From contig MNCI01002192.1 of assembly GCA_015680685.1 (NCBI GenBank), forward strand, positions 127,237 through 191,236: a DNA stretch of 64,000 nucleotides, read 5' to 3'. This document shows, in pieces, positions 30,000 to 62,778 of the stretch (its first letter is position 1; the number at the start of each line of letters is the position of its first letter). Below the pieces are notes generated by a model. The model did no database searches. It had not been told where the DNA came from and saw only the letters and a program-made list of their open reading frames with translations. The DNA comes from Gnetum montanum. Lineage: Eukaryota; Plantae; Gnetophyta. A program made the translations under genes and the position numbers.

Positions 30000-31500
30000 A
30001 GAAAAAGTTTCTTATCCACTGTCACCTTTGACACTATCACTTATACTAGAAAAATTAAATCATGTCTAAGTACGATTACAAGTTTATGATGTTGAGCATG
30101 TATGTGCCTTACTTACATTGATTAGGGAGGGCTAGGGAAAATCATTTTATTTATGGTATTCTTATGTCTAGTAAGGATCACTTATTTTTCATCTATCTTT
30201 AGATAGTTAAGAATATACATTTTTTCTATAGTTGGTAGAGGAAATGCATTATAGTTATTCTCATAAGAGGGACCAAACTTCTTTTGGGAACCCTAGTAGA
30301 TCCAAGCAAGATCAATGTTCTATATCTAGTGGATATTAGCACTAGCACTAGTTTTTGGATGTTGGAACCACTTGTGGATCCATTACTTATCATCCTTATA
30401 GAAAATTTAGGCTATTCTAAAGAAATTACCTCAATTTTTATAATTGTAATCAGCTAGATAATATGATATTTAACTATATAAAGCATTTAGGTAATGATAG
30501 TTCTTAGTAGGATGGTAGAATAACAAGTGGTTAAGGTGATGCTAAGATACATGGATATGTTTATGCTTTGATTGACTAATTGGCTAATGCTTAAGCCAAA
30601 ACAATGATGTAGGAAAAAGATACAATTTTATATTTTGTAGTTTTGAATCTCTTTGATCTTGATGCTAGTCATTCTTTTATTGATCCATGGATAGTTTAGC
30701 ATTTAGGTTTTGAAAGTTAGTTCCTTCTTTAATGATTTATGATTAGTACTATTGGTGGTAGTGTACTTGTTGTGGATCAAGTCTAAAGATTAATATCTTT
30801 GGTATTTCAAGATATCTCTTAGCTAAGTAATCTTTAATCATGAGTATAGGTGAACATGATATCATCTTGGGTATAGATTAGTTATCCCATTATTAGAGCA
30901 ACTTAGATCATTGTCACAAGACACTTTTCTTTATAATAAATGATGATGTTTAGATGACTATGCATACTAGGCTACATAAGATTAAGTTAGATCTTATCTA
31001 TTTGAGTTCTACTTATTACTTGGATTATTATTAATAATGTTCTATTTTGTTCATGCATCTTATGAATATAGTGTGATGACATCTTACCTAGATAATTTTT
31101 TTAATTATGTGCATCTATGACATTTTGGTGTACTCACCATTGAAGGATCTTTATGAGCAACATTTGAGAATATTTTTATAGGTGTTTAGGAAGCATTATT
31201 TATTTACTTAAGCATCTAAGTGTTCATTTTGATGCTAAGATATTTAATTTTGTGATATGTTATTTTAAAGGTTAGTATTATTATACCTACTTTTTTGATA
31301 TTTCAACAACTAGAATATGTGTGATTTTAACATTTTTATATTTACTAAAGGAATTTCAGGTAGCACAAGAATTACTTGGTTATCTTGACTTCACAAAGAA
31401 CTAGCTAATAACATTTGTATTTTTGGAAAGCTTAGGAAGTTATCTACAATTTGAAAAAAATGAAGTATTACAAATGATATTCAAAAGATAAGGCTATGTT
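30000..31500 (+). pseudogene. Very degenerate gypsy (chromovirus-like) gag/PR/RT fragment
   Basis: LFDLDASHSFID (PR active-site region, ~30650), DIILGID*L (~30860) and DILVYS..EQHLRI (RT, ~31120). Confidence 0.6.
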
Positions 31501-31534: not shown

Positions 31535-32492
31535 TTACATTTTGTTATGTCAAAACCTTGGAAAATGAAGAAAGTGGAAAATGTACTCGTGAAATCTTGT
31601 AACACTTGAAAAAGACAAGAGCTTGACAAGAACGTGTTGAAGATCAAGACAAGAGTTGAGTTGTTAATCTAAAGGCATAAAGAGTTTTGGAAAATTCAAA
31701 AGGATGTATGATGTTTAAAAGTCAATAGAAGATGTTTTAGTAGTTGTTAAAGCATCCTAGAGAAATAGCGAATGTTCTTATTAAAAAGCCAAGATTTCAA
31801 GTGAGATGTTCCAAAAAATAGTAGACATCTTAATTGAAGCTAAGATATCCTAGTTAAGATTTCTTATGTGAGATGTCTTAATTAAAGTAAGACGTCCCAA
31901 CTGCAAGCATCATAAAGTCAATAATATGTGTCAAGCTTGAATGAGACATCCCAACTAGCCATTTTCTAGTTGTTGTATGAATTCCAAGGATCATTTGAAC
32001 ATGATAAAAACTATAAAAGAGATGATGTCTTTATGAAAAGTACAAGTATATTCACATTAATATTTCCATTATTGCATACATCAAGTGAAATATTTTGTAC
32101 TTCAATTCTTGATCATTTTGTTAATTTGTATATTTGTTGAGAGCTTCAAAGTAAGGAATCTATAATTTGAGTATATTTTCTTCTTGATGTTCTCTTTGTG
32201 AGCCCTACGAAGTTGATGCACTTCTTGCAAGAAGGAATCTCTTGAGAATATTGGGACCTTGAGGGATTATATGTGTTTCTTAAGAGAAAACACCCCATGT
32301 AGAGCTCAAGTTATTGTAAAGGTTGTGGTATCCTTAAAATCACATTTTTAAAGAAATAAAGTTTGAAGGTGTGCAAAGATTCTATCCATTGAGTGTGGAC
32401 ATACCCAAGTTGGAAAACCACATACATATATGTGAAGTTTTGATTTTAATTGATGGATCTTATTCAATCTCCCTTCTATGTTCTTGATCTTT
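31535..32492 (+). mobile_element. Copia 5' LTR
   Basis: AGATGTC/GACATC motif cluster. CTATAAAAG at ~32011. Followed by PBS-like GGTATTGGAGC and a gag start. Homologous (inverted) to 47185-48287. Confidence 0.65.
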
Positions 32493-32667: not shown

Positions 32668-33161
32668 TATAACATCTTGTCCCTTGTTCAAGGTGGAATT
32701 GTACTATAATCATGTAATTAACCTTCGAAATAGCGAGTGCCTCATTATGAGGAGTTGGAATTATTCATGATATCCCTTGGGAATGGGTTTGACCTATGGC
32801 ATTTAAGGTCAAGATTAGAGGTCATGCTAACATGGAGTTGTAGAACCAAGATTGGGAAGTAACAAGAGCTGGGTGAAGTTAGATAAGAAGAAATTAATCA
32901 CCCCTTTGGCTAGATATCCTAACCATGGTGGTAGTGTTGGATTGCCTCTAAAGGTCTTAAGTGCCATAGAAAGATAACCGAGAGGGGCGTTACAGTTTAC
33001 CATTTAACACCAATAAAATTTTTCCTTACCTTATTTCTTAATTTAGTGCCACAATATTATTTACTAAGTTATTCGATTATATTTCCATTATAGTTTTACA
33101 TGTGATGGATTAAGCAATGAATGATTATGTTTTAATCAACATATGGGAATGGGATGTCACA
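32668..33161 (+). repeat. 5' LTR of chromovirus copy A, followed by iMet PBS (33164-33174)
   Basis: T(G>A)TAACATC...GGATGTCACA then TGGTATTGGAG. It is the reverse complement of 37398-37907. Confidence 0.85.
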
Positions 33162-33349
33162 TTTGGTATTGGAGAAAATAATGATTTAGGAGCCAAGTGG
33201 AATAGAATATTATTAAACTTTATTATTAAATATGGATAAAATACATAGAGTATGGAAATATATGGAAGGAAATAGAAGAAGATGGAAGTAGAAGAAGGGA
33301 TCAATTAGGGAGATGGATGGAAGTGGAAGAGAGATAAGTTATTGTTATT

Positions 33350-35450
33350 TGATTTAAAGAGCTTGAGAAGATCAAAAATAGCCTTCAACTGGGCCTCATG
33401 TTTCTTCTCAGTAGCATCTTTTTTATTGATTATTAGCTAGCATTCAACTAAACCATTGCATATTTGTTTGATGTATTTGGTGACACCCTTTGTTGCAGCT
33501 TGTACCTCATCCATCTTTGTAAGCTCACATTCCAATAGAGTCATCTAAAGAGTTCATTGGACCACATCTTCCTACCATTCTTTCTTTTCCCTTCACATAC
33601 AAAAGAAAAGATTCAAGATTAAGGCTATGAGTGTAAAGATCATAATAAAAATAAATAGAAGAAAGAAAAAGAATTACTTACATGAAGTTGATCATTCTCT
33701 ACCTAGAGGATGCTTTTGTAGTTCAACAAATAACGAGCAAGATAAGTGGTACTCTTTAATTCTCCTAAGAGCTATTTGAGATTTCTAAAAACTTCTAGAA
33801 CATCATTGGAAATAGGATGAAAGAAGGATGCATCACCAACATGCACTAAATCACGATATTCCTTGAAGTTACTCAATTTGGACTTCCTGAAATGGTACAA
33901 TTCTTCAGAAATGAAGTAAGGTGTATTTATAGTGATTTTTTCACCAAGATTTCAAATAAGAAAAAGTTATTCATTAGCAAAAACCACCATTTTTCCTAGT
34001 GAGAAAGAGGAATCCATGATGGTGATAGAAGGAGTTACTGTAACAGAATGAGGAATTGAAGATGTTAGCATGGCTTATGGTAAAGTAGCCCTTATTAGAG
34101 TCACATGAGGAGAAATCACACATGTTGATTTTAAGTGCAGGGTTGGAGTTTTCTCATAGCTAGTATGTGAGGTAGAATCCTTCCCTAACTCCTAGATGAT
34201 GTACCTCTAACCTAGAGATATCTATAACATAAATGAACACAAAGTGAGCATCACACAAGAAGAAGAAAGAAAAGGGAAGTATTTAAACACTATATAATTA
34301 AATTTGACTTTGATTATTTTCCTTTATCTTTTTGTTTGGTTCTATCCTTTTGTTTGATACTTAAAATTACCTATCTAGTAGAACCTTGGCTAGTATGTTG
34401 TTTCTCATTAAAAAGAACAATAATGAATATAAAAATTTAGAATTAGAAATTTAGAAGTAAAAAAAAATAATCCATTAAAAATACATAAATAAATAAATAA
34501 ACCTTAAAACTAAACTCTATCACCACCACATCCTCCCTTTCGAGAGTTGTTTGGTTTCTTTTAAAAATCCAATCACCTTCCATTGATTCAACACCATTCA
34601 TTTTGTAGCTAAGATTGCACTACCAATAAATACATAAAAAAATACATAATTAACAAAAGTATATATATATATACCTCATTAGTTCCTTGTAGGTTATGAG
34701 CTTACTTAAGAGTTCTTTAACCTTTCTTTCCAGCCTGCATCCAACCCTTCACAAGCTTCTCCCCTTCAAGAAACTTGGGATGTAAAATAGGGTCGAAACA
34801 ACTAAGAAGATTGGTTGAATCATTATAACTTAAAATTAAGGACATGATCATAGGTACATAGCATATAGTGTAAGGTTTCTGTAGATTTTTCTTTGTGGTA
34901 GTAGAATGTTCAATGGTGGAATGTAAGGCAAAAAAATAAGACAATGACCAATCATAAACTCTACCAATTTTAGCACCATGTAGAATATAGATGGAATAGA
35001 ATAGGTCGTCACATAGGAATGTTGTGGATTCTTGAATATCAGAATGATGAACATAATCAGACAATTTTTTTTGAAAAAATGTTTAAAACTTAGGAGAGAA
35101 AATTGTAGGGATTAAAGGATTCTTCCCTAAGTGAAGACCTAAACTTGATTGAATGTCAACCAAAGTAATTACTAATGGTCCAAAAGTAATTTTTGAAGGA
35201 GAACTTTTAATTTTAATATAGGCATTACACCATTGTATTATCAGATTCTTACAATACGATGCTTTAAAAGTAGGAAAGACAAGTAGCTCAGATAATCTAG
35301 AGGTTGTAAGATATTGAAACTTCTCAACTTTGAGTAAGTTACAAAAAGAAGTAGAAGCTAAAACTAAATTATTTTGGTTCAAAATAATAGATTCTGATTT
35401 AGGGCTACCTGAAGGAGCTTGAGAGGAACACTTACAATCCATGCTATCAT
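33350..35450 (-). pseudogene. Antisense multi-exon accessory gene (PMD-like) in the 5' leader of chromovirus copy A
   Basis: ORFs 35083-35442 (..FGPLVITLVDIQSSLGL..) and 34717-35064 (..GRVYDWSLSYFFALH..). GT-AG introns 33591-33681 and 34620-34674. TATA-like CTATAAAT on minus at ~35514-35521. Confidence 0.65.
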
Positions 35451-36129
35451 GCTTATAGAAATCTTCTTTGTCTATGAAATCTCTGCTATACTACAATGGA
35501 AAAACACTTCTTGATTTATAGAAAAATACAAAAAACCTTATATTTACAACTTAAGATTATTAATAATTAATTAAATCTAGCACTTGCTTTCTATGGTTTT
35601 TTTGATTGATAGGTTGAGAAAGCTAGAGTTCTCATGAATTAAAGACATAGTGCTCTCCAAGATGATTCTAATGGTACCAATTTTGTCCAAATTTGACTTA
35701 CGGTTTAGGGCTTCTCTTTTTGTATTGTATCTATTTTAACAAAATGTTATTAAAAATTAAATTATTTTTTTAAAAAGAAAGTAATGGGAGGTTGTGCATT
35801 CAAAAACCAACCTCAATATTTTACTATTATTAAAAAAAAAAGACTATTGGCAGGGTAGCGTGGCTTGTTGGGCAACAACTAGCAGTCAAGGATGCTTATT
35901 ATTGGTGTCCATCCCTAATGTTGGCCTAGGTGTAGAGGGATTTGCAAATGGTCCCATCCTCATTACAACATGTTGATCATGTGGGCAATGCTATAGCTCA
36001 ATGGGGAAGCAACATTGTGGTGATGGACTTGTAATCGACGAAAAGCATCAATGGCCTCACCTGAAACATCCTCTAGAACTTGTTGAACCCACTCTAGGGC
36101 CTTCTCTAGCTTAATCGCTAAGATCGCCT

Positions 36130-36860
36130 GAGCTGGGATCCTTATGTGTGCCATTCCCATCTTTGATGTTGTCTCTATCTCCAGCTCTAACATAGGCACT
36201 AGCTTCAGTGTTGGTGCAAGAGTTTTCATGACTCTACCCTCAACTACCATTACTAGTCATAATCCTCATTACCATGATTACCAAATCCTCATGCTCATCA
36301 AAACTATCACCAATTTCTGCACCTAGATGCTACTGCAATGGAATTGGAATCACCTAGTGTCACTACTATTGTTTCTAGATTCACAGGGCATCTATAAACC
36401 CTTGCCACACCACCACGATTTCAAAACCCTCATGCACATATGCATCCATGTACTTTGCCACTGCATTGGCACTATTGATGTGACCATCGACATCAAAAGT
36501 TGTTGCCTTCATTATCACCCATTGACACCTCCATTTTTGAGAATCGTTGCCTTCATCGACACCCACAAACATCATCAACACTAGGAATCATTTCCTTCAC
36601 CAGCATCCATGGACACCATCAGTGTTGGAAATTACTACCTTCACTGGCACTTGTGGAGACCATTGGTGCTAGGAATTGTTGCCTTCATTATTGTCCATAG
36701 ATAGTGTTGGCATTGAAAATTATTGCCTTCACTAGTGCTCATGAATATTGGTTTCATCAGGAATCATTACCTTCACTTGCATTCACAAAAAAAACTAGCA
36801 TTTGGAATTGCTACCTTCACTAATGCCAGTAGATGCCAACGTTGGAAATTGCTGGCTTTC
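36130..36860. repeat. Degenerate tandem array (TTGCCTTCA-containing units) in chromovirus leader A
   Basis: Recurrent GGAAT(C/T)..TTGCCTTCA(C/T) units. Counterpart at 46930-47150. Confidence 0.7.
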
Positions 36861-37024
36861 AATGATGGAAATTTTTTTTGTAAACTGACAAAGAAATTTA
36901 AAATATATGTTAGTTGATGAAACAAATTCAAATTAAAAAAATTTCATATCAAGATAAAAACTTTAAATTTAAGAATGCAAAAAGAATTTCAAAAAATAAT
37001 GGTGCCTTAACACCAAATGAGATA

Positions 37025-37090
37025 AAAATTCTGTAATTAAACATGCTCGCTCCAGAGTAGTACTAGGATGGGTGACATCTCAAGAAGTCT
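37025..37090 (+). promoter_or_regulatory. 5S rRNA-derived segment (Pol III internal control region: box A, IE, box C) in chromovirus leader A
   Basis: 23-nt exact match AGAGTAGTACTAGGATGGGTGAC (37054-37076) to plant 5S rRNA. Preceded by degenerate box A (ATTAAACATGCT) and followed by GAAGTC. The 5' ~40 nt of 5S are absent. Confidence 0.85.
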
Positions 37091-37397
37091 CAAAAAGTAA
37101 GAACATTTTTATAACTTAAAACAACCATAAATTGTGTTTCTAAAGTCCATTTTTAATGAAACAAGAACTATTTTCAAAAATTTAAACCTTCAAAACATAA
37201 TGGAATGATTAGATTCATCTTACACAAGATGAAAAATTAGTTTTTCAAACCATTATCTACATCCCTATAACATGAAGAGGGAATAATCAAAGTCTGTAGC
37301 AATTGGTTGGAAGTTCATGAAGAGAGATTTGTTCATTGTGGTTTAACCTTTGTTGGAATCAATTAACTATTGCAAGATTCATAAATAGGACCATAGG

Positions 37398-37907
37398 TGT
37401 GATATCCTATTCTTGGATGTCATAAAAATACGATTTCTTAATTTATTGCATTCATCATTTTCTTAGATAATATACTGGAAACATTATAAATATCTAATAA
37501 ATGAATTAACTAGTAAATAAATAATTAGTACTGAAAAATGAAAAGAGGAAAATGAAAAAATTTTATTAATAGAAGAGAGTATTTTTAATGCCCTCTAGGT
37601 TTTCTTCCCATGCCACTTAATCCTTAGAGGCAATCCAACATTGCCACCATGGTTAGGCTGTCTTGCCAAAGGGATGATCAGTCCTTTTCTATCTCACTTC
37701 ACCTGGCTCCTATTGCTTGCCTCTCTCGGCTCTGCAAATCCATGCCCAACACAACCTCTAACCTTAGCCTTAAATAGCATAGGTCAAACCCTTGCCCAAG
37801 GGATACATAAATAATTGTAACTTCTCATAATGAGGTTCCCCTTCATTTGAAGGTTAATTACATTGTTTACAATTATTTCCACCCTTAACAAAGAATGGGA
37901 TGTTACA
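37398..37907 (-). repeat. 3' LTR of chromovirus copy B
   Basis: Minus strand TGTAACATCCC...GGATATCACA, preceded by the PPT at ~37909-37921. Confidence 0.9.
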
Positions 37908-38104
37908 GTCTACCCCCCTTAGGCATCTAGCTCATCCTTAAGCACTTCCTCTATGTTTGGTTGCTTAGCTACTACTTCATTATTATGCTCCTCAAATTTG
38001 GTTCCTTTATTTTCCTCATTATCATCTATACAAATAGAAGATTATAAATTATAAAACATAATTTATTACATCCATAATAAATACAATTTATCATTCAATA
38101 TTGT

Positions 38105-39300
38105 GATGCTCAAAAGATGGAGGTAAGTATTTAAAATAAAATCCTTATTTTTTCAAGTTTGTTGATCACAATTTGATCATTGAACAAGTACTTCACTAAT
38201 AGTTTTATTTTGTAATTTCTTGGTTTGTTGGTTCTTAATAGTAATGGGTCTAACTTCAAAGTTGGCATTGGATTGTAATGGCAAAGTATTCCAATCCAAC
38301 ACATATGGTACATCATTTTCATGAAATTTCTTTAGCAAGCTTACATGAAAAACTAGATGATTTTTTTAAAGTTTGCTGGAAGATTTAATTGACATGCTAC
38401 TTTGCCAAATCTTTCAGAGATTTCAAAAGGTCCATAAAATCTAGGTGCTAATTTTGTATATTTTTCCAATTTAAGAGAAATTTTAGTAGGCTTTACTCTT
38501 AGTAATACTTGATCTCCTACTTGGAATTCCTTTTTAGGTCAATTTTGATCTGCATATCCTTTATATTCATCTGGGGAAGCTTGTAAATTTTGTTTAACTC
38601 TTATGAAAATGTTTTCCATTATTTTCATTTTTTTCCTTCCATTTCATTCTTAAGGTTGGATCTACCTAGGTTAGAGGTGTATGGCAATTACGTTCATATA
38701 CTACTTCGAATGGTGTTCGATGTATAGAACATTGATAATTGTTATTATAGAAATATTTTGCTAGGCGTAAATAATTCTCTAATGTTTTTGGTCTATTCCC
38801 AACATATCTTCATAGGATATCTTTTAATATTCTATTCATACATTCAGTTTGTCTATTAGTCTTAGGGTGATAAGCTGTGCTAAATTTCAACTAGGTTCTA
38901 GACTCTCTAAAGAAATCTTTCCAAAATTCCAATATGAACTTGGGATCTCTATCTAAAGTGATATATTTTGGACAATCATACAATCAAAATACTTCACGTA
39001 CAAATTTTTGGGCTACTTCTTCTACTATGTTTGTAGATTTCAAAGTTATAAAATATGCCATCTTTGATAGATGATCAACCACTACAAAAATTGAGTCATT
39101 TCTCTTTTTGGTTATTAGCAATCTGACAATGAAATCCATGGTGACATCTTTCCATTTCTAGGTTGGGACTTCCATAGGTTGTAATAATCCACTGGGTTTC
39201 CTCTATTTAGCTTTTATTCTTTGGCATATTGGATAATTTTTAATGCATGAGGACACATCATTCTTCATTCCAGGCCAAAAATAAGATTTGCAAATTATCA
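38105..39300 (-). pseudogene. Integrase with GPY/F motif and C-terminal chromodomain
   Basis: VTMDFIV..L, VVVDHLSKMAYF, DRDPKF, LAPRFYGPF, FHVSLLK. Ends RPITIKNQQTKKLQNKTISEVLVQ*..QT*KN..TYLHL (group II chromodomain). Confidence 0.85.
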
Positions 39301-39349
39301 TATAGGTCTAAATATAACCTGGGTATCTTGTGTATGGTACTTTGTTTGC

Positions 39350-40546
39350 TTCACACAAACAACCATAGTCTCCAATTTCCTTCTAGTATGCACACTCTTT
39401 GTCCTTTCATCCATAAACTATTAGAGGTAAGTTGATATTGAGGCTCATAGAAAATATTGGTTAAAATCTTTTTAAAATAAGAATCTTCTTTTATTTTTTC
39501 ATTGATTTTTTCTTCCATAGGGATCATTACCACACCTATCATTAAGTTCCACATTTGACTAAGGGCATCAACTACCACATTTTTCTTACTAGGAATATAT
39601 TTGATTTCAAAATCATATTTAGCCAATAATTCTATCCATCACCTTTGATGAGTATTCAAATAGGCTATTTCTATAAATATTCCGATCTTTTATGATCTGT
39701 TTTTAGTACAAATTGTTTTTTGCAAAGATAATGTCTCCAAACTTTTAGAGCATGAAAAATTACTAATAATTCTAAATCATGGGTTAAGTAATTTACCTTG
39801 GCTTCTCATAATTTATGAGATTCATAACATACCACTTTATCTTCTTTTGAAAGAACTAGATTGATTCCTATTCCACAAGTGTATGTGGATACTTCAAACA
39901 GTAATTCTTCATTTGGAATTCTCAAAATAGGTGCTGTTGTAAGTAGCATCTTTAATTTGAGAAAAGATTCCCTGCATTTTTCATCAAAGTTGAACACACA
40001 TTTCTCCTGCAAAAGGTTAGTCAATGTGGCTACCAAGGTAGAATAATCTTTAATGAAATGTCGATAAAAACTAACTAAAGCTAAGAAGTTGCAAACTGCT
40101 ATAACATCTTTTAATTCAGGCTAGTCTTGGATCGCACTAATTTTTGCTGGATCTACTTATAATCCTTTCTTAGAAACTATATGTCCTAAGCATGAAACAT
40201 TTTTCTTAAAGAGTTCACATTTACTCAATTTATATTTTAGCTAATGCTCATTAAGAATTTCCATTGTAATTTTTAAATGGTTGACATGTGCTTCTCTTGA
40301 CTTAGAATAAACAAGTATATCATCCATAAATACTATAACAAATTGATTAAGATATTCATGAAAAATATTATTCATTAATGCCATGAATGTTGTAGGTGCA
40401 TTAGTTAATCCAAACAGCATCACAACAAATTCGTATAACCCATACCTAGTTCTAAAAGTGGTTTTTTTAATATCTTTCTCCTTAATTCCTCTTTGGTGAT
40501 AACTTGATGTTAAATCAATCATTGAGAAATTACATGCATATGTAAG
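39350..40546 (-). pseudogene. RT (C-terminal part) and RNase H of chromovirus B
   Basis: FSMIDLTSSYHQ, KTTFRTRYGLYEFVVMLFGLTNAPTTFM, FVIVFMDDILVYS, DLELLVIFHALKVWRHYL, YDFEIKYIPSKKNVVVDALS. Confidence 0.92.
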
Positions 40547-43500
40547 TGTTGGCAATCGTTTGGGATGCGACTACCAACGAGTGTCCTCGAACAGGATTTG
40601 GGTGCTTACTAGTCTTTGGCAACACCAAGGCCCAGATACCTCCAAATAGACTCAGTAGTTAATGTGAGTATGTGTGTGTTTTGTTGCGGTGTGTGGTTGT
40701 CAAATATGAAATGATTACGTTGTGTGTAAACTACAAATGACTTATCTTAAAGAGATTCAGCCAACTTTGCCAAGTACTATGAGTTGTTGATAGTTCCTAT
40801 TTTGTTCAATTGCCTAGTCTACGTGGTCCTTATAATACCTACTTGTAACAAATAAAATTTTGCAAAAACATTTGAGCACAACTCTGCGAATCTACTNNNN
40901 NNNNNNNNNNNNNNNNNNNNNNNNNNNNNNNNNNNNNNNNNNNNNNNNNNNNNNNNNNNNNNNNNNNNNNNNNNNNNNNNNNNNNNNNNNNNNNNNNNNN
41001 NNNNNNNNNNNNNNNNNNNNNNNNNNNNNNNNNNNNNNNNNNNNNNNNNNNNNNNNNNNNNNNNNNNNNNNNNNNNNNNNNNNNNNNNNNNNNNNNNNNN
41101 NNNNNNNNNNNNNNNNNNNNNNNNNNNNNNNNNNNNNNNNNNNNNNNNNNNNNNNNNNNNNNNNNNNNNNNNNNNNNNNNNNNNNNNNNNNNNNNNNNNN
41201 NNNNNNNNNNNNNNNNNNNNNNNNNNNNNNNNNNNNNNNNNNNNNNNNNNNNNNNNNNNNNNNNNNNNNNNNNNNNNNNNNNNNNNNNNNNNNNNNNNNN
41301 NNNNNNNNNNNNNNNNNNNNNNNNNNNNNNNNNNNNNNNNNNNNNNNNNNNNNNNNNNNNGTCAACAATTTCATTCAACAGAACCTTCAAAAGACTTGAC
41401 AATTTCTGATTGAAATACCATGGAGATTCACTTTAAAGATAAAAAGAAGCTATTCTGGTCCCATCAAAATACCAAAGATTTTCTGAACCCTCTTGACTAT
41501 TGAATCGTTCAACGACATGACTACAAGTAGAGGCTCTCTTACAAAAATCTCAATAGCAGTTCTTATACGTTGCACAATAATAAAATTTACTACTAAAATG
41601 CTCTTAAGGCTTTTAAACACAAGCGCTTCTATGACAAAATTTTAACAGAAATTTTCTATCGGGCAACAAGAACAATAAGAGCAATCTAAAAATCCCAAAA
41701 TTACTTGCTAAGGATGATATTATCTAAACCACTAGCTAAACAATTTAAACAAAATAAAAAACAATAAGCATAACTCACAGGACTATGAAAAAGAGGCTGA
41801 AATCTTTTCTTTAGCAAGCCATCTTACAAGCAATCTTTCACAATTTCTTCTTTACAATGCTCTTCCCAAGACCCAAAGTGTGTCTCCAAGTGAGAGCTTA
41901 GGTGTGATCCCAAATCTTCCAAAGTGTGTTGTATTGTCCCCCCCTTGTTCCCTGAAGCCTTTTTATAGGTTTCAAAGGTAGTTAGGTAAGTTACAACTAT
42001 TTTGGGTGGTTATAACCACTATAGAGATAAAAAAGCTACAGTTGACAAGTGTCCCATGTAGTTGCCAAGTGGCCTATTCAGTTGCCAAGTGGTCACCATG
42101 GAGACAAAAAGGCTATAGTTGACAAGTGGACTTGGTGGTGGTTATAACCACCATTTCAATTGACAAGTGTTCAATTCACATGGGACTTTGAACAATTGTT
42201 GCATAAATTTCCTTTTTAAATCATAAAATATTTTATTTTTATTTACATCATAGTAGTAGAGATAGTAACGATGGAGTTGATGCATACATGGATGGGTGAA
42301 TATATAAATATATATGTAAGTGTGTACAACTGAATGCATAAATGGAGTGGCACTCTTGCATTTTCAACACAAAGCAAGTGTCACATTATGTAGATAGTAT
42401 ATAATTTAATTATAGTTTAATCATGTAGATAGTATATAGTTTATAGTATCAACACATAGCATTGCTTCCCGTTATGTAGTTTGTGTAATGGTCATCGTAG
42501 TCTAGGTTCAGCATGAAGATGTCATTGGTGATTCTGGCCATCGTTTGTATGAATGCGCTCATGCTGGACAATCGTTTGTATGAGCAGATTTTAGTTCATC
42601 ATCTTCAAAGTTGCTACCGCTATTAATGACTTGAAATTTGGATCAACATTAGGGTCGTTTTGTGGATAACAGGGTTGGGAGTATTGGATTGTATATCTTG
42701 TATTTTTGGCATGGCCACGAGATTGTTCTTGGAGCTACAGTGCATAACCTTGAATCCAACGATGACCTAGAAACCAGATCTAGATCTATATCCAGTGCTC
42801 TGTTGCTGCGAAAAAAATGCCAACAAATGATGTAGGCATAGGAATAGGGAACCTTCCTTCTTCTTTTTGTTCCTCTACAAGCGGAGACGGTACTAGGGAC
42901 TATCCAGGATGATGATTTCGGTGAGTGCTACAGCAACGGCAATGGACCACATGGCCTTGTCCATGCTCTAGCTTAGAAATGGCCTGGCTTGTAGCTACTG
43001 CTAAATCTCTTCCTATTTGTCATCTTTTCGTATTGAAAGCTTCAACAAAAGCCCTAATTTTCTCCATAATTTTAGTGGCTTTAACGAATGCAATTCAGCG
43101 CAGAACCTCATTCTGACAAACGCCGAAGCTACCATCCTTGATGATGCCATAGAGGTCACCGTTTCTCAGTGAAAATGTGGAAAGGATTATCTCCTCATCT
43201 TCGCTCTTGGCCGTAGTGTAGATCTCATCTTCCGTCACACTAATGCTAACGATTTTGCAGATGAAGGCCATTTGGAAGAGGATTTCCAGAGAACGAAGAT
43301 CAAACACCAGTGCATTCAAATAATGCAAGAGAACACCCTGGTTTTCAAGGATTTGCATAGGAAATCGATGTTGTAGTGTTTCATCGTGGCTCGCCTACAG
43401 ATACAATATTTGTGAGTTCTGCGAGGAAGCGAAGGTCCAGCTACTTGCAGAGGTAGTTGTTCATAGTTCAATTGTAGCGATGCATCACGGATGTGCTGAT

Positions 43501-44052
43501 CACACATGCCATCAACCTTGTTAAGACATTGATGCCCAATGTTTTCCACTCTTTCTCCATTTTTGCAGAATCTTCTCTACGGTGGGTTTTGGTGGCTTTG
43601 CTTCTTGATCCAATTCTTATGTGTGAAGATGACATTATGTAGAAACGGTCACCAGCATGAGGGCACCTTTTCAGTTCACTAATTAGTTTCTTGACTACAA
43701 ATTAGTGTTTGAAGTTTTGTGGATCTCAAAGGTTTCACTAAGAAATTTGATTTCTCTGAAATTATCATTTCTCCAGCTATGCATGGTCACCATGGTTGCT
43801 CCTCCTTGTGATGATGACTCTTAGATAACACACAACCCAAAGATAGATTCCAGCATTCCATAAATCAAATCCACAAAAATCTGCAACAACCCAGCACACA
43901 GACCAGACCTGCTACTACATAAATACGTAGACCCTTGATTGCTTCCTTCATAATCCCACTAGACTTTGGTTCTGTAAAGCCCAGTGTATCATAATATATT
44001 TATATATCTATATTGCTACCTTGTTCCATGAAATGGCCAAAATGTACCAACA
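40547..44052. mobile_element. Younger LTR element inserted in the RT of chromovirus B (contains the assembly gap and a probable nested LTR 41361-42454)
   Basis: TGTTGG...CCAACA termini. TSD GTAAG at 40542-40546 and 44053-44057. The RT frame resumes on the other side. CpG-retaining. Confidence 0.85.
40897..41360. other. Assembly gap (N run)
   Basis: Run of n characters. Confidence 1.
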
Positions 44053-44057
44053 GTAAG

Positions 44058-46120
44058 TTGATTAAACAAATCCTCGGTCGTAGGTAAGGGATATGTATTT
44101 TTAATCATCACATTATTCAATGCTCTATAATCAATGCATAATCTTAGTTTTCCATCTTTCTTTTTAATGAATAATAGAGGTGCACCCCAAGGTAATAAGC
44201 TAGGTTTAATTTTTTCTTCTTGCAATAATTAGTCTAATTGTACTTTTAATTCTCTTAATTTAGAAGTATAAATTCTATAAGGGGCTTTTGAAATAGGTTG
44301 TGTACAAGAAAAAATATCAATGAAATGCTCAATGGTTCTTTTTGGAGGTAGTTCTCTAGTTTTACCAAATACTGAATCTTTATATTCCTTAAGTTCTTTT
44401 AGGATCTCAGTACTTAAAGATCTTTGAGGTTTTGTTACTTTGACAACCAACATCATAGCACCTTTTTTAACTAATCTTTTAGCTTGCTTAATAGTTATCA
44501 TATGAAGTTTCTTTGTTGTTCCTACCCCTCTTAGAACCCTGACTCTGTCAATGATTGGGAATTTTAAAATATGAGTTTCAAAGTCAGAAGTAATATAAAT
44601 TTTTGCAAAAAAGACATTCCTAAAATTGCATCAACATCACCTAGTTCAAATTCAAAGAATTCATTAATGAAAGGCATGTTTTGCAAGGTAAAGTTAATTT
44701 CTCCATACTTGGTATGCTTGCTCATAGTTGTTCCATTTTCCAATTCTATCTTAATAATTTTCATGGAAGGTAAAATTAATTTCAATAAAGTAATTAACTT
44801 TGGAGAAATAAAGTTATCACTAGCACCACTATCAATCAAAAATTTAATTTTCTTACCTTTAATTAAACCTTCAAAAATCAGTAAGGCAAATTGAAATTTA
44901 TGCAAACCTAATTTAGTTGATGTAGATATCTTCTTCATGGTTGTGGTGATGGTTAGAATTTTTCCTTTATTCATGTTTGGGTTGGGTTTTTAATTCTTGT
45001 TTTGGTAGGTCCTTTGTATTTTTTCTTGAAATTTTGGGTAGTCTCATTTGAAATGATATTCACCACAAACGAAACATCTTGATCCTGATTGAGCTTTGTT
45101 GGCTGGTGTCTCCTCTACCATTTCTTGTGGAAAGGTAGTTTGTTGAAGAGTTTTTTTTGAGAGGTAGCTCATATCTAATTTGATTCCTCATAATCCTTAG
45201 CAATTCTATATGCTTCATTAATGGTTTGGCGATTATAGGCTCGTGTTTGGGGACATAGTTGAGCATGTAGTCCTCTAATGAATTTTGAAGCTAATTCTCC
45301 CTCATCTCGATAAGTTACATACCAAGAAAGATCATAGAATTTCTTGTAGTAATCATTTATGGATTGCCTTCCCAATCTTAAGGAATCAAATCTCATTTTG
45401 CACTCTTCAAGAAAACAATCAAGAATGAATTTTGGTTTAAAATATAAACAAAAATTAAGCCAATTTGTAATCAAACCTTGAGATCTTAGTCTATTCCACC
45501 ATGTTTCCACAAGCCCTCTTAAATATAAGGAGATAACTTCTAAATTTTCATGGCTTGAAAAATTCAAAATATTGAAGTAAATTTTCATTGTATCAAGCCA
45601 ATCCTTTACCTTAGCACTAGATCTAGGGGCTCCATCATAATGATCTAATTTTATTTTCTTAGCATGAACTTGTGTTAACGATTATCTAGGTGGATTAAGC
45701 TAGTTCCCATATCCTTCACCTTTGGTTTTAATTCTATGGCATACAAGAGGGATTTCAGTATCTTGTCCACTAGCAGGTGGGGTTGTGTTTTGTGTGGATC
45801 CTAGGGAGGAAGTTGATCTTGATCTTGATATTGTTTCCTAGGTAGGCCATGGGCAAGATTTAAAGGATGAATGAGATGGTCAGTTAATTGCTTAATGGAG
45901 TTTGCAAAGAAATCCATCTTTCATTGCCCATCTAATCATTTATCCTCTAAACTTTGGGATAATTTCTTAATTTCCTCAAACATATTTTGCATCTTTGTTC
46001 CAAACCCCTAGTTTGAGTGTTGAATTTTTTCTTAAACACCCATGATCTCATTAATTTGATCTTCAAGGGCCTTCATCTAATCATTGACTCAAGGTTCCAT
46101 TTCTCTCTAGTTCATTCTTT
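44058..46120 (-). pseudogene. gag, protease and RT N-terminus of chromovirus B
   Basis: YLRGLVETWW..FDSLRLGRQSINDYYKKF (gag), CFVCGE.H (Zn knuckle), FLIDSGASDNFI and DVDAILGM (PR), [26 protein letters not shown] (RT). Confidence 0.92.
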
Positions 46121-46450
46121 GAGTTCTAAACATCAATAAGTTAAAGAAATTAGGTATGTTGAGAATCCTTAGCTTCTATGGCCCTTTTTATGAGATTCAA
46201 AATTATTAGTCAGTTGTAGAAGAAGTAGAAACTATCATGGATTTATCGTTGAGTACTAAATCCTAATTATTTTTAGGAGCTAAAATAATGAATTAAATTC
46301 TAATTTTCTATAATCAAAAAGCTAAATCTAATAGTTCCATTAAGTCCAAAAGGTTAAAATTTATTGGAATCAATTTTTGTTTGGTTGAAAATAAACTCTA
46401 GATTCAAAAGTTATAGTCATTTTAAGTTTACAAAACTTGCACATTTTTCA

Positions 46451-46515
46451 AGACTTCCCAAAAGGTCACCCATCCTAGTTCAACTCTAGAATGTGCATGC
46501 TTAATGACAAAATTT
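46451..46515 (-). promoter_or_regulatory. 5S rRNA-derived segment in chromovirus leader B
   Basis: Minus strand ATTAAGCATGCAC..AGAGTTGAACTAGGATGGGTGACCTTTTGGGAAGTC. Flanks are colinear with those of 37025-37090. Confidence 0.85.
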
Positions 46516-46929
46516 TTATTTCTCTTGTTACTGCAATACCAATTTGAAATTTGGTAAATAATTGTGCATATTTTTAATTTAAATTAACAATTATGGATGC
46601 AACATTTTTTTGAAATTTTTCCATTAGTTTATGGGAATTTCAAAATTTCCATCAGTTATTAAGAAAAATTTGATTTTTCCATCTACTGATGGACGATCGA
46701 TTCTAGGGTTAACATGATCCTCTTTTAAGCTGGTGCGGCTTGTTGCACAGTCCCTGCAATCCGTTGTGTGGTCCCTATGATGCAAGTCATTGCATGGTCT
46801 CTATGGACCTTGATTATGGCCCATTTCAAGGCTAGCACAACCCTTGATTGAGCCACCATGCCCTGTCACATGGCCTACATGACCTTGGTCAAGCCCAACA
46901 CAACTTATCTTAGGACCTACACTTGGAGA

Positions 46930-47150
46930 GGCGATTATCAATAGTGTCCAAAGAGGTGGTTATCGGTGATACTAAAGATGATGATCAATAGCATTGGGGG
47001 TAGTTGTCAACAATGTTGGAGATGGTTATCAATGGTGTTGAAGGCAATGATCAATGGCACTGGAGGCGATTATTGAGAATGCTGAAAGTGGTTATTGGTG
47101 ATGCTGAAGGCAGTTACCAGTGGTGCTAGAGGCAATGATTGGTAGTGTGC
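46930..47150. repeat. ~21-bp tandem array in chromovirus leader B
   Basis: GGCGATTATCAATGGTGCTGAA-type units, about 10 degenerate copies. Confidence 0.75.
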
Positions 47151-47184: not shown

Positions 47185-48287
47185 CCTTTAGACTTAGACT
47201 TTGTTACTCTCAAATGTGGTTTGAAGGGTACCACATCCTTTACAAGATTTAAGCTTCACAATGGAGTGATTCCTTGCAACAAATCCAGTTAACCCCATAA
47301 GGTCCCAATAAGCTTAGAATGTGGTTTTTAGGATCCTACAACCTTTACAACTTGAGCTCCCCTCTAGAGTGTTGTGGTGCTACACCAACACTCAATCCTG
47401 TAGGATCCTAACAAGCTCAAGCAAGATGTCTTTCCACAAGAAGCACATCAACCCCTTGTGGCAACAAAAAGGAACAACAATCATAAGGAAAGAATACAAC
47501 TAAGTTTGTTGATCCTTGTACTTTGAGGTATAACTCATTCTAATTAATTACAATAGAAAAAAAATTGTACAATGAGGAATAACAATGATTACACTGATTT
47601 TTTAATGAATACAATTGATAGTACAAAATGCTTGCACATTTCCCAATGAGAATGAAGTCTTCTTATAGTCAATATGTTTTTGAAATTAGCTCAAAATCAT
47701 GTAATAGCGAACTAATGGTCACTGGAGATGTCTTCTTTGATACTGGGACATCTTTCTACAATGGATCTTCATTCTAAAAAGATGTCTTCTTCTCATGAAA
47801 TATGTCTTTCTCTCTAGAAAGATGTCTACTATTTTTTAGAGACATCTTCACTTGTGCTACCTTTAATTCTAAGAAGATGTCTTCTATTTTTGAAAGAATT
47901 CTTCACTTGATAGTAGATGGCTACTATTTCTACAAGATTTTTTCACTAAAAAATAATCCTTTAATGCTAAGGCTTCCTTCTAACCTCTAAGATAAGCTTT
48001 GAAGTCATTGTTCCTTGTCCAAGATCTTTGAATTCTTGCATGTTTACTTAAGACCTTGTAGATGTCATTCTCCTTTGAGCTCTCCTTTTGTCTAAACAAG
48101 TTCATTCCTTGTCATCAATGTAGGCTTCATCTTTGTCTCCTAAGATCTTCATTTTAACATTTCTTTGTAGGTGTCATCTCATCTTCTTATTATGTCTTCA
48201 ATGGACTTTGTCCTACAATAATAACAATCACATAGTACTACATTTTCCTTAACATTTTCACATACTAGAAGGTTAATAGGAGTAAGT
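47185..48287 (-). mobile_element. Copia-type LTR related to 31535-32492
   Basis: Reverse complement GAGCTCAAGTTGTAAAGGTTGTAGGATCC matches 32302-32335. Same AGATGTC motif cluster. Ends are approximate. Confidence 0.6.
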
Positions 48288-49099: not shown

Positions 49100-52000
49100 G
49101 TATACAATCCCAACAACCCAGATGTTGAGCATAGGCAATTGCTCAAGTTGAGAGGCGAAAGTCTAGACTTTGCTATAATAATAAAGATTATTATAATTTC
49201 ATTTGCACCAAAATCCAAGCTGACCTGCTCATCCCATGCATGGAATTAGAATCCAACATGAGGTTGAGTTAATCCATAGAAATGGAAAAGAGTACATCCC
49301 TTCCCCATTTGAAAAAATAAAAATAATTAAAATCCATATGTGCATATGACCTTAGTTAATAGAGATGGATGAATTTAGCAAGAAAGTTAACTTGGAAACT
49401 CATCATGAAGAGCATGATGAGTTAGAGGCCAAACCGAATCTTAATGCCTTCATTGGGAGCCTTTTCCAGCAATCAGCTTTCCAAACCATTATAGGAAATT
49501 TGGCCTCTCCTACATCATTCGTGAGACAACTTTTCCAACCTTTTTTTCCACATGCCTAGCCTACTATGTTTGGATCAATGCCCATCATTGCTACTCACCA
49601 AGCATAACCGGTTCCTCAATTACCCTCACTCTTCTCATTAATGTCTTTTGTAACATAGCCTTGCTCAATGCAAATGTCACCTGTGGTGTTCACCATGGCT
49701 CGTCCCTTCTCCATTTTAGTGGGAATCTCAGTGGGACCCTAGGTGACTCAAGCTTTCCATGCTCCATTTCCCCCCTTTGTCCCTGAAATACTCATGTATA
49801 CTTCTTTTTCACTTTTCAGCCCACCTATAACCATGATTACACAACCTCTACAATCATTACCACTACCTATCGCGAAGCCACCAACCTTCAAACTTCCCCT
49901 TCAACCATTTGTACAAAGCCCATAATCTGCCAAAGTGCTCCAAGGCTTGGATCAAGCCTTCCAAATGATCCAACACCTCATAGGAGTACTGCACAAGCTT
50001 AAAGCTTCCACCACATAGATAGTCGAGGTAATGGACTTTTATTAGGATGATTTCATTAGTTTGACTATCCCTCAAATCACTCTTTTCCCAAGCATTCCCA
50101 TATCATAGTTCACCAAGTACAATGGTGAGGGTGATTTTAATGCACACCCTAACATCTTTTATTCTAAATGCTTGTTACTATAGGTTGGGCCTCATACAAT
50201 TATGTGAATCTTTCCTATGTCCATTATTGGAAAAGCCTTGAACTAGTACCACATGTTTCCTAGAGGATCTATTGCCTCACTAGAGGACTTGATTTTAAAA
50301 TTTGTGAATCATTTCAAGTATAAATTGAAACTAGACACCACCTTGGATCAATTGATGAAAATTAAATAGGGGCCTATTGAACCTATTCATAAGTTTATCC
50401 AAATATGGAATGCTCTACTTAATAAGATTCTTGAGTCTATAGCTAAAACCCATCTTCTAACCATTTTCAAGGATGCAATTAATGATTTCATCAAGTCCAA
50501 ACTATATTATTTAGACCTATGGTCTCTTAGCTAGGCTTTCTCACAAATTGAAAACATAGAGGATGCTATCAAGGCTAGTCATGACCCTACCTATGTAGCA
50601 TACAAGAATCATCACACAAGGAAGGATAAGGATAGGGAAAAGTAGAACCATGTAGCCATGGCCACTATGACCAAAGAGAATAAGACTTCATAGGGGTCAA
50701 AAACAAGTCAACCCAAGGTCTTTGCTACAAACAACAAATCATCAATATTAGAGGACTCTATCTCAAACCATACAAGGCCTAAATTTAACAAGAAACATTG
50801 GTTGAAGTACACCAAGTTTTCTGTATAACCATCTGATCTCATTAACTAGTTGCTCAAGAGTGGCCAAATCCAATACAAGAAAATGATCGAGAATGTCCAC
50901 AAGAGGCATGATTGACTATGCAAAATCACTAAGTATCCCACTCTAGCAACCGAGGATGGTCCAATAGAACCAAAATACTTCAAAATTAACCAATTTCATC
51001 ATCATCATTAGTTGCAAGGTCATGATACTAATTCCTATTTAGCCCTAAAGGATGACTTGCAAAAGATGATAGACAATGGAGAGCTAATGCTTGATACCTC
51101 CAACCTACTTAGGCCTCAAAACCAATATATGCAGGTATATAAAGAACCATTGAATGCAAGCAAAAATCTATACATGAAAGAAGTATTCAACTTTAGCAAC
51201 AACCCAAGACATGCTAGGGAGTTTTTTGTGATTTGGGTGCCTCTTTATGATAAAATGAAACCTTCAACTTCATCTAGTTTAAGGACTCCTTTTGTTGTAA
51301 GGATATCATCAGCAACTCCTCACAAATAATTGTTCATCATTAGAGTATCCCCTCTCGCTGTTGCCAAACCTACAACCCAAATTGATTAATATCCTCCTAT
51401 GGTGACTAATACAATGACTTCTTCATAACCCAAAATCAATAAATTACTACCAAGAAACATAAGAAGTATGTCCCAAAGCCCAAGGTCAAAGGCAACAAGC
51501 ATGTGAAGGCTTGGAAGGAGGTGGACCCACCAAAGCCTATGCCTCTTTCAAACATTCCCATGAGCTTCAACACTTAAAATGCTTTAAACAATTAGCCAAG
51601 GAAGGACTAAAAACTACAAGAGAAGGAAAAGGGGGCTAAGCTACAAACCTTAAAAATTGATATTTAAATCCTAGGACAAATGGAGGAAGTTAAAGTTAAT
51701 AAGAATGGGAAATCAAAAACCCTTGAAAAATACTTCCTTAACACCATGGAATATGTGAAGCTATGTTTGAAATAGAAAAACACTTCTTTTAGCCTATATG
51801 ACCTAGTGATAACTGAAACACCCTAAAATTTCAAGGCACTCTTGCTTCACCAAGGTCTTGGAAATGAGGCAAACATTTCCACAAGTGTAGCCTCATGACA
51901 GTTTGGTAAGAAATGAATGCACTAAGTTTAGACTGTTCAATTTGGCAATTTTTCTACCTCCAAAGCTGACAGTACTGATGGACTCTCCAACCTACCCACC

Positions 52001-54440
52001 TGGATGTTTCACCCAACTGACAGTCTATTTAGAGACCATGCTTGGAATTGTTGATGGATGTTTTCTAGTGAAGAAGCTTGCTACACTATGCTATATAGCA
52101 TAGCAAGCCTTAGAAGATAGCTACTCATGCAATCAAGTGCAAAATATTGCAGAATAGGGTGCTACGCTCTGCTATGCCAGGCAGCATAGCACAACGTAGC
52201 AAAGGAAAATCAAAAGGACTAGCTTACCAAGTGATTCTAATGAAGAAATTGCACTCGGCAAGCACTCCAGCCACCAAAACCAATTACCTTGTTCAACTTT
52301 AAGTTCTTTAGCAAGGTCCCTTACTAGAAAGTGGCGGATTGAGCAAAAAGTAGGATATGCTAGCTGCTATGCTGTGCTACGCTACATAGCATAGCATAGC
52401 ATAGCGATAATACAAGAGTAACAAGAAATGTTTCAAATGCAAGTTCAACAAGCTCAGAGGCTATCCTTCGCAAAAGAAAAAAGTTGCAGTTGTTAGCATG
52501 ATCAAAGCTTCAAACAAGTGTTTGCAACTTCAGCACGAGTCACAGGTAAAGCCAACTACTACGCTATGCTATGCTACATAGCGTAGCATAGAATAGCAGA
52601 GATGCAAACTAAATGAAGTGCTTCAAAAGTTAACTTGATGTGCACCGAAGCTTCCAACAGATGTAGTTGACTTCAACACAATTTTTTTTTTCAAACTGGT
52701 GGCTACGCTATGCCAACGTGCTACGCTACATAGCATAGCATATCTTAGCAAATAGCTACACTACACCAGTATGCTTCATCTCTTACTTGCATTGTTTGCA
52801 CACTTGACACCAGCACTCCTAGTTTCAACAACATGATTGCAGCGTAGCAGGTTCACAATCGGCGTTGCATATCCATGTAATATGGGCATGTCAGCATCTT
52901 GTAAGTCTAGGACACATGGCATCTAAACCACATCTCTCACCTGCTCTTGGCCCTATAAATACCTCGATGAGCGATGCTTAAAGGCTTGGCAAACTTGGTT
53001 GGCAGGTTGCCAAAAATTTGATTGGAAAATTGAGAATCTTATTGGCAAGTTGGGAAATTGGAAATTTATTGGGTTAGCAAGTTTCAGCGTTTGGCAATTT
53101 TTTGCATTAGCACTTGACATTAGCTTTTTTCTTGTTGGCATTTTGCACTGTTAGCTTTTAAGCTTGTACTAGAAAAAAACATAGTTGACGTATTTCAGGC
53201 GTTCCAGTCACTCGTAGACTCTCCGTGTGCCTCTGACATTATATAACTTGTTATACATTTTCAAGCAAAGAAGAGAATTGAACCCACGACTTTGCGGTGG
53301 TGTATTTTCTTATCCCATTTACTTTGTGATTTCTTCATTGTCATCATTGTTTAGCATCATTTTCTTTATCATTGCATTTATTGATCATTGGTTAGATCTC
53401 ATGTATTTTGCACTTAGAACAACATTTACAAAAGGTTAAGTTACACTAGTTAAGTCCCTATTTAATTGACCAGACCATTCAAGGTTCCCCATTTCCATTT
53501 TATTCAGCATGATCCTCATATGGATTCAAGGTTAAAACTATTTGCCCAACGACCTCTTGATGTTTCTAGCCACCGACGTTTTCGGTCACTACAATAACTT
53601 CTTCTACTCACCACGAAGCCTTAGTAAAGGTGTTGATCTCAATTCCTATTATTAAAAACATCCTTGCTAATGAAGAGTCCATCCATGATACTAGTTTCCC
53701 CTAGGGAAGAAATGAAGTCAAATGTACTAGTTTTTTTTATAGTGAAGTTAAAAGTAATCCTCAGGATAGTGAGATAATAAGGGTCCCTCTCTTCATAACT
53801 ACAAGGATTGGGCAATACTAGGTAGATAGGGTGCACATTGATGATGGACTAGCCACCAATGTTATACCTTTTACTATTATTGAAGGGTTAGGCCTAGCGG
53901 AGCACATTCAAAATACTTCTACCTTTGTTTTTAAATTCTTTAATAGATCATGGATGGTAGTAAAGGGTTTGATTTCACTAGACTTTGTAGTAGGGGAATA
54001 ATTCCCTGCATCAACCAACTTCTTAGTGGTGGAAGAAATACTAGGATTTAACCTCATCCTGGGGAGGTCTTGGCTAACTGATTTATGAGTAGTTTCCTTT
54101 CCAATTCACCAAGAAATTCACTTACCTTATGAGGGAGGTGAAATATTTATTTAGGATGATAATGTAGTTCCATTGGTAGTAAATAACATGAACATGGAGA
54201 AAGTGTTTGAAGTGGAGTTTCAAGAAGAAACACCTACTATCAAGAATAAAGTCAAGAGGCTTGAAGGAGTAGATCAAGCCAAAACCAAAGATAACCAAGC
54301 TATTGATGCACAATGGAAAGGGCTCCCATTCAACATGGTCAATGAGAAAAATGGAAAATACAAGATTATATAATAAAGATCGTATGCTTTCCTAATATTT
54401 TAAAGATTAGGAAATAGTTGCATGATTGAGTATGTCCCCT
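49100..54440 (+). pseudogene. Tat-family copy C: gag-protease, split by a solo LTR
   Basis: FTKYNGEGDFNAH, FIKSKLYYL, GHDTNSYLALKDDLQ, SLYDLVI|TSSTHHEALV, VHIDDG (PR), FNLILGRSWL. Confidence 0.88.
51814..53593 (+). mobile_element. Solo LTR of the Tat family
   Basis: TGAAACACCC...TTCGGTCACTACA, with the same termini as E1 LTRs. TSD ATAAC at 51809-51813 and 53594-53598. TATA CCTATAAATA at ~52952. GCTACGCTA/TAGCATAGC arrays. Confidence 0.95.
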
Positions 54441-54929
54441 AATCACTTGACCCTATGTTAAGGAATGTGTGATCTTTTCTTCTTACTTTTATTTTGTAGC
54501 CTTTTGGTGCCTTTTCTATGTTTCACGGTAGTCCTACACACGTTCTGTACCCCGTCACGCACTAGCGTAAACGTGATACCCTTTTGCAGTTGTTTAGGCA
54601 TCGTGTGGTGTATATTGGTTGCCATGATGGTTTCTTTGGAATCCCGTAGGATAGAAAGCCTCCGATCGCTACTCGATCTTCTTGTTTTTCTCATTTGTGA
54701 ACCCTTTTTAGCCTTACGAAAATGATTTCCTAAAGCACTGTAGTTACTACCTCTAACGTTGAGGTTCCCCTTTCGGTTCAGGGCACCACAAGTGCCGAGC
54801 AACCGCTCAGCCTAGTGCGAAAGCTATGTTGATTTCTCAGGATCCAAAACTGATCACCTGAGAGCTTGGCATAGAAATACAAGCAATAAAACTTTCTTTG
54901 CGCTAAGGTTTAGGAAAATATACCCTTAG

Positions 54930-62770: not shown

Positions 62771-62778
62771 TATTTATA
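62771..62778 (-). promoter_or_regulatory. TATA box of the antisense gene
   Basis: Minus strand GCTATAAATAGGGG, ~135 bp upstream of the candidate ATG. Confidence 0.65.

Follow-up and report, generated by a model that had tools for sequence, protein, structure and literature searches.

Why should a retrotransposon that encodes gag and pol carry, in its leader and ahead of gag, a piece of a 5S rRNA gene with the boxes of an internal Pol III promoter? The question is raised by two places in the window, by which we mean the whole 64-kb stretch of DNA analysed here. Elements with long terminal repeats (LTRs) owe their transcription to Pol II, which starts in the LTR. With a type 1 Pol III promoter, the start lies about 50 nt ahead of box A, and the transcripts end at a T run.

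A pattern scan of the window located an exact 23-nt 5S match at 37054-37076 (+), in what we call copy A, and a second one with 2 mismatches at 46465-46487 (-), in copy B. No other place came within 3 mismatches, and two matches to the 23-mer were seen in 0 of 100 shuffled windows. With L020, a plant 5S gene confirmed by Rfam, as reference, positions 37025-37090 align without gaps to 5S +40 to +105 at 49 of 66 letters, and positions 46516-46451 match the same part at 47 of 66. The best 5S scores in 30 shuffled windows were 31-35, and the next-best place in the real window scored 32. The 64-kb window holds no third copy of the piece, located as follows:

37025..37090, plus strand: 5S rRNA-derived piece (+40 to +105) of copy A, with box A at 37035-37046 and box C at 37065-37077
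46451..46516, minus strand: 5S rRNA-derived piece (+40 to +105) of copy B, with box A at 46506-46495 and box C at 46476-46464

The likeness stops at these limits. In copy A only 15 of 39 letters agree over +1 to +39 and 2 of 14 over +106 to +119, and in copy B only 12 of 39 agree over +1 to +39. A functional 5S rRNA gene was considered and rejected, as the piece has 66 nt instead of the full 119-120 nt and no match to RF00001; Rfam returned 0 matches in the window and 4 chance matches near the piece, none of them 5S. The plant 5S references were obtained by a 23-mer scan of genome contigs that yielded 33 loci, and the first 20 of these, used as controls, all gave a full RF00001 match (20/20). 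The 33 short contigs (L001-L033) that match the plant 5S core lie in bacterial genome assemblies; since the 20 tested are full plant-type 5S genes, they are therefore plant DNA contaminants.

Scored against the motifs printed in PMC7215508, box A is kept at 10 of 12 letters in each copy, that is with 2 misses, and box C at 12 of 13 in copy A and 13 of 13 in copy B. The two boxes are 18 nt apart in both copies, as a type 1 Pol III promoter demands. The preliminary description had proposed a segment of about 65 bp, covering only the 5S internal control region, with a 23-nt exact match. The match is real, but the piece extends beyond the boxes, by 10 nt on the box A side and by 13 nt on the box C side. 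By its sequence, the piece is of 5S origin.

The two pieces lie in two decayed members of one family, which face each other. Around the piece of copy A we found the following features, with the corresponding repeat zone of copy B given last:

32668..33161, plus strand: 5' LTR of copy A, 494 nt, TA..CA (decayed TG..CA), 71-75% identical to the 3' LTR of copy B
33164..33174, plus strand: PBS-like site of decayed tRNA-Met type, seen in the sequence 2 nt behind the LTR
34717..35490, minus strand: antisense reading-frame remnant in the leader, 121 + 135 aa with one stop between, 257 codons
36475..36834, plus strand: degenerate short tandem repeats upstream of the piece, with self-matches of 58-63%
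37091..37256, plus strand: AT-rich leader common to copy B and other copies (113/164 identical to B; bridging contigs)
37106..37110, plus strand: T5 run at +121, the position of the 5S terminator; copy B has a T4 at +121
46953-47141: similar repeat zone upstream of the piece in copy B, found by alignment

The LTRs of the two copies are identical at 363 of 482 positions, and the canonical form of the PBS is printed in PMC7215508. As first described, the piece stands in sense orientation in the 5' leader and outside the LTR: it begins 3850 nt behind the PBS-like site, and both LTRs (32668-33161 and 37399-37907) are devoid of a 5S match. Copy A ends at 37398, 308 nt past the piece, where the 3' LTR of copy B, in inverted orientation, interrupts it. 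Because an LTR and the order of repeats, piece and flank are common to both copies, we take the whole leader of A for a single element, which could still include a nested piece within 33200-36400. The antisense frame remnant, which may be a part of the family or a nested piece, matched no Pfam family and no homologue among longer proteins (the latter being weak evidence). Its resemblance by eye to a plant mobile domain was rejected for want of Pfam support.

Other features lie near copy A. A far more decayed protease/RT remnant lies upstream at 30500-31300 (+), with a weak tblastn match at 31098-31196. Upstream of the LTR, 32184-32362 (+) is an LTR-like repeat of another family, which is also present at 47198-47417 (-) with 65-74% identity, where the leader of B breaks off.

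The coding part of the family is found in copy B:

37399..37907, minus strand: 3' LTR of copy B, 509 nt, TG..CA, the end of which cuts copy A
37908..37920, minus strand: polypurine tract (PPT) of copy B, seen in the sequence
38100..39350, minus strand: broken integrase, SH3-like stretch and Tekay-like chromodomain tail of copy B (PF17921, PF00665, PF24626; tail motifs)
39354..40570, minus strand: broken RT (C part) and RNase H of copy B (PF00078, E 3.9e-19; PF17919, E 1.1e-9)
44016..44989, minus strand: broken protease, linker and RT (N part) of copy B (PF13975, E 2.4e-10; PF08284; PF00078, E 0.0017)
45175..45681, minus strand: gag fragment of copy B (PF03732, E 1.1e-10)

From the list of ATG codons, gag of copy B would start near 46080, about 370 nt behind the piece. 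Its gag-pol is interrupted by many stops, by frameshifts and by a 3.5-kb insertion in RT, and no 5' LTR of this copy is present in the window. A tblastn search of the window with the stop-free pieces of B revealed no second gag, PR or RH that could belong to copy A, and a search for gag homologues among longer proteins found none, which is weak evidence. All the Ty3/gypsy features (gag-PR-RT-RH-INT, LTR, PBS, PPT) are therefore present, but split between A and B. The tail of B shows decayed K-x-L-R-x-K, V..W and TWE-like motifs when compared by eye with the Tekay motifs of PMC3350952, while Pfam gave no chromodomain match in B. RT relatives numbered 120, at 59-70% identity, none of them with a clade name. 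The family is likely a Tekay chromovirus of the Ty3/gypsy type. The term 'autonomous-type chromovirus', applied earlier to copy A, is thus right for the family, which encodes gag-pol and is of chromovirus type, but it can describe ancestry only and not these copies, because A is without gag-pol in the window and that of B is broken.

The insertion in the RT of B (40547-44052, minus strand) has ends TGTTGG..CCAACA and a 5-bp target duplication; it contains an assembly gap at about 40896-41360 and short frames with no Pfam match, and is likely a long solo LTR or a non-coding LTR element. Elsewhere in the window, two nested pairs of direct repeats (6599-8295/22802-24509, 80%, and 4156-4828/27805-28497, 76%) are likely LTR pairs of older nested elements, and the region inside them matches 50000-64000 in inverted orientation in several patches. 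Short palindromic CTATG/CATAG units occur in several copies at 52076-52751 and 59854-59913, in what looks by eye like a Tat/Ogre-like element.

Is the piece a peculiarity of these two copies? Twenty sequencing runs were listed, 9 of them with the stretch or part of it and no RNA run among these, and 6 of the 20 were examined. Contigs were matched to A at 36851-37450 with 80% likeness, and to B at 45401-46900. The A region was matched by 1287 contigs in run X1, 1093 in X7 and 743 in X8, under organism labels A, C and D, a share of these being LTR end or 5S rDNA. The piece and the flank downstream of it are joined in contigs with 22-37 differences (records 10-12 of X7 and 17-19 of X8). The B region was matched by 7206 contigs in X1 and 5039 in X8. 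On B, the depth of X1 never goes below 1060 in any bin between gag and 46650, then drops to 12-34 past 46750, and one contig (X1 record 7, 46304-46594, 45 differences) covers the piece with both flanks. Among the 16 matches listed on B (with 12361 more), none bridges the piece and gag; the pieces listed overlap toward gag with small gaps between. Hence the segment is not confined to two copies, which would have spoken against a family trait: it occurs in many others, under three organism labels and with unbroken depth into gag. The piece appears to be family-wide in a high-copy coding family and is apparently undescribed in this setting.

The piece also precedes a different downstream flank in at least 132, 102 and 54 contigs among the rows listed (508 more rows stand behind these), and continues as 5S in at least 15, 11 and 13. 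This other flank agrees with that of A at 10 of 30 letters, ungapped and by eye. Its contigs, which have loose ends behind 37090-37096, are not rDNA and have a T5 directly after the piece, which could stop Pol III earlier. Beyond these runs, the 23-mer had 0 matches in viral contigs and a family-specific pattern had 0 in metagenome contigs; 4 metagenome loci found with a looser pattern were rejected, all being 5S tandem arrays with no match to the proteins of B.

The origin of the piece can be approached through the 5S of the host. RNA reads that cover the piece extend it in both directions to a full 5S rRNA with a T run, and they give the host letters T49, A51, T68 and A107, where the other plant 5S copies have G51, G68 and C107 in 32 of 32. 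T49 and A51 are present in both A and B, and T68 is present in B and in 97 contigs of X1 while A has C. Deamination at a CHG site could have produced T49 and A51, but the simpler reading of the letters common to piece and host is a capture from the 5S of the host lineage. This makes the suggested relation to the origin of Cassandra unlikely: the host-lineage letters at +51 and +68 occur in 0 of 32 other plant 5S copies, and the LTR/PBS context of Cassandra is missing. The host 5S rRNA itself (X10, X11; 37033-37090 and 46452-46489) is unusual in its box A (T49, A51, C59), its 68-107 pair is compensated, and reads in these two runs pass the terminator into the spacer. This 5S type we presume to be of gymnosperm kind, near the gnetophyte 5S. 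In Ephedra, 5S pseudogenes that lack the first 40 nt are described in PMC6526317 and PMC3692318, and since the 5' border of the piece equals theirs, a truncated pseudogene is a possible donor.

The same reads were inspected for a product of the element. In X10, 104 reads fall on A, nearly all of them 5S rRNA, and 2 reads with one start (18 differences) enter the flank. In X11, 41 of 46 reads lie on the piece, all with 5S letters, and in the poly-A run X13 diverged copies account for 8 reads, one of which crosses the piece. No peak of RNA starts or ends was seen in X10, X11 or X13, of which 2, 2 and 26 in 100 were read and in which short RNAs may be lost.

Whether the piece was kept by selection was examined letter by letter in one pair of copies, A and B. 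They are identical at 52 of 66 positions in the piece, 99 of 147 upstream and 113 of 164 downstream; for the whole piece this gives p=0.056 against the pooled flanks and p=0.33 against the LTR. Boxes A and C together keep 22 of 25 letters against 212 of 311 in the flanks (Fisher p=0.026; p=0.13 against the rest of the piece and 0.11 against the LTR). With the boxes set one base later and IE included, 22 of 24 are kept (p=0.009, 0.048 and 0.047 for flanks, rest of the piece and LTR, respectively). Transversions between A and B are 5 of 66 in the piece and 53 of 311 in the flanks (p=0.034), and gap events are 0 and 9 (p=0.17). Neutral decay should moreover strike the piece harder, because it started GC-rich (0.56 against 0.19-0.22) and with 12 CG/CHG sites. 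The comparison of box C with flanks proposed at the outset thus yields better-kept boxes in this pair, but a borderline result for the whole piece and a box C without CG/CHG sites.

The serious alternative is a passive passenger, a 5S fragment picked up shortly before amplification and copied without function, with box C kept for want of methylated CG/CHG. We consider it quite possible, though at less than even odds. Besides the borderline whole-piece statistics, departures from 5S are mostly C>T or G>A (11 of 17 in A and 11 of 19 in B). CG/CHG sites are changed at 8 of 12 in each copy, with 0 such sites in box C, so mutation context accounts for part of the pattern. The RNA runs show no transcript peak, and the Ephedra pseudogenes without the first 40 nt (PMC6526317) indicate that such a border needs no selection. 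Against this, transversions, too, are rarer in the piece, and changes shared by the family fall between the boxes: at +65/+66 the 5S letter is found in only 11-15 contigs of X1, and at +76 the non-5S letter of B makes up about 30% of X1 depth. Depth with that letter is 11,962 in X1 (adjacent bins 6,199 and 3,087) and 3,481 in X8 (adjacent bins 2,269 and 609), more than either neighbour in both runs; summed word depth is no copy number, contig capture favours likeness to the core, and rDNA pseudogenes may add the +76 letter of B. The piece is also preserved ahead of flanks that have diverged from that of A (10 of 30 letters, by eye). Finally, +106 to +119 are lost, yet spacing up to +105 is exact. 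On balance, the evidence leans toward constraint on the piece, short of proof.

The piece could also be the remnant of a separate small 5S element, a Cassandra-like LTR or a 5S-derived SINE, inserted in the ancestral leader. This is improbable. Its 66 nt are near the Cassandra core of about 70 bp, depth upstream on A drops sharply before 37011, and insertion of a SINE3, an animal SINE headed by 5S, has been proposed for Cassandra and Ajax (PMC10886601). However, no TG..CA ends, PBS or target duplication were found around the piece. On B the family depth continues for 200 nt upstream with no sharp border, and the 5' end of 5S that heads SINE3 is missing. According to PMC10946416, plants have no known 5S SINE and gymnosperms no known Cassandra. 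SINE3 identity was rejected, since +1 to +39 are unmatched (15/39 and 12/39) and no borders were seen.

Even less probable is a role as RNA, in which helix IV, loop E and helix V would fold in the Pol II transcript and bind TFIIIA or L5 for export, stability or packaging. The best-kept part, +69 to +104, is precisely this domain, and B keeps 11 of 12 tested pairs including G-U and folds to the same hairpin. But A keeps 6 of 12, neither copy folds better than shuffles (z 0.0 and -0.14, against -1.9 for the 5S gene), the 3' strand at +106 to +109 is changed in both, and box A is kept though outside the helix IV/V domain. A common change falls at +76, which we take to lie in 5S loop E. For the predicted 120-nt products, z was -1.1, no better than shuffles; this says little because the 5S control (z -1.5) was no better either.

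Could Pol III, then, read the element or its gag-pol from the 5S promoter, as had been suggested? This is hardly credible despite the sense orientation, the right box spacing and the place ahead of gag, because the start would lie 3.8 kb behind the PBS without R-U5-PBS and give no template for reverse transcription, a T run at +121 is shared by both copies, 10 runs of at least 4 T precede the gag ORF of B and 68 its 3' LTR (nested insert included), and PMC10886601 argues that autonomous elements must use Pol II.

For the same reasons the piece cannot drive genomic RNA. In copy A the Pol III start is predicted at 36986, and because of the T run at +121 in both copies the product would reach at most about 120 nt; copy B has gained further T4 runs at +44 and +93. 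The run at +121 may itself be due to chance, since T runs start every 100-130 nt in both leaders.

We therefore favour the reading of the piece as a DNA site in cis, given that a Pol III transcript is no template and a role of RNA structure is weak. The piece was likely kept, at a probability of about 0.5, as a site for TFIIIA and the Pol III machinery ahead of gag. A high-copy family would have captured the 5S promoter of its host lineage (+40 to +105) into the leader, from a gene or a 5'-truncated pseudogene, and the boxes would have been under selection while the family was active. Factors bound at this putative site may hold the chromatin before gag open and, next to the tandem repeats of the leader, act as a barrier or against silencing. 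Insulation and methylation escape, the two other uses suggested at the outset, may also apply. The piece would yield an RNA of at most about 120 nt and never genomic RNA, the element itself being presumably transcribed by Pol II from the LTR. The more specific proposal, that an autonomous chromovirus in a plant group without Cassandra made its own capture of a 5S promoter, kept it across subfamilies and used it as a TFIIIA/TFIIIC shield or for a 120-nt RNA, is doubtful as a whole.

How does this arrangement compare with known systems? Cassandra is the nearest. Like the present family, it has a 5S stretch of about 70 bp that includes the IE as well as boxes A and C at a distance of 18 nt, and a PBS of tRNA-Met type, together with changes that fall between the boxes (the MotIE/MotC pattern of 10.1101/2023.07.14.548913) and letters that track the host 5S. 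However, Cassandra carries the piece in both LTRs, is shorter than 1 kb and non-coding, and replicates with its Pol III transcript as template. The present family encodes gag-pol and has a single internal piece, 3.85 kb downstream of the PBS, and the leader of A exceeds 4 kb. Identity with a Cassandra TRIM was rejected on these grounds: the piece is not in the LTRs, B contains gag, PR, RT, RH and INT, and the element is long. The Ajax TRIMs of ribbon worms and Helenus (PMC10886601) likewise keep only the promoter part of 5S and no 5S folding, but they are non-autonomous, of 311-1263 bp, with the piece within the LTR.

SINE3 resembles the present case as a retroelement capture of the 5S internal promoter, and differs as a non-LTR element with 5S at its 5' end, whereas here +1 to +39 are missing and the host is an LTR element. 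The Ephedra pseudogenes share the missing first 40 nt and the same 5' border, but occur as tandem copies within the rDNA spacer, with their 3' end and terminator retained. In the Triticeae, Caspar CACTA transposons reportedly have a 5S-like sequence inside a coding transposon; they are DNA transposons and, if this is right, would be a precedent for 5S pieces in coding elements outside the LTR class. Tekay/Del chromoviruses agree in the gag-PR-RT-RH-INT order, the PPT, TG..CA LTRs of about 500 nt and the decayed tail motifs; they differ in that no 5S piece is reported for them in the parts seen of PMC6317226, PMC3350952 and PMC12222929. A 2024 review of rDNA in transposons (PMC10946416) knows 5S promoters from SINEs and non-coding TRIMs alone, none of them in gymnosperms, and reports no Cassandra from that group. 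A full-text literature search that included parts of PMC6317226, PMC12222929, PMC13570524 and PMC12486564, with most subscription papers and repeat databases outside its scope, retrieved no LTR element that both codes for proteins and carries a 5S piece internally.

If the more specific proposal is true, the family would be a first case of a coding LTR retrotransposon whose Pol III promoter serves some purpose besides template synthesis, and a second, independent capture of the module of about 70 bp known from Cassandra. Independent capture of nearly the same stretch would support a modular view of Cassandra with multiple origins. In the host genome, dispersed pieces of this kind would inflate 5S copy counts based on reads and could cross-react with 5S probes. 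A 5S core kept where no template is possible would point to a role in chromatin, and this bears on why Cassandra itself keeps the module.
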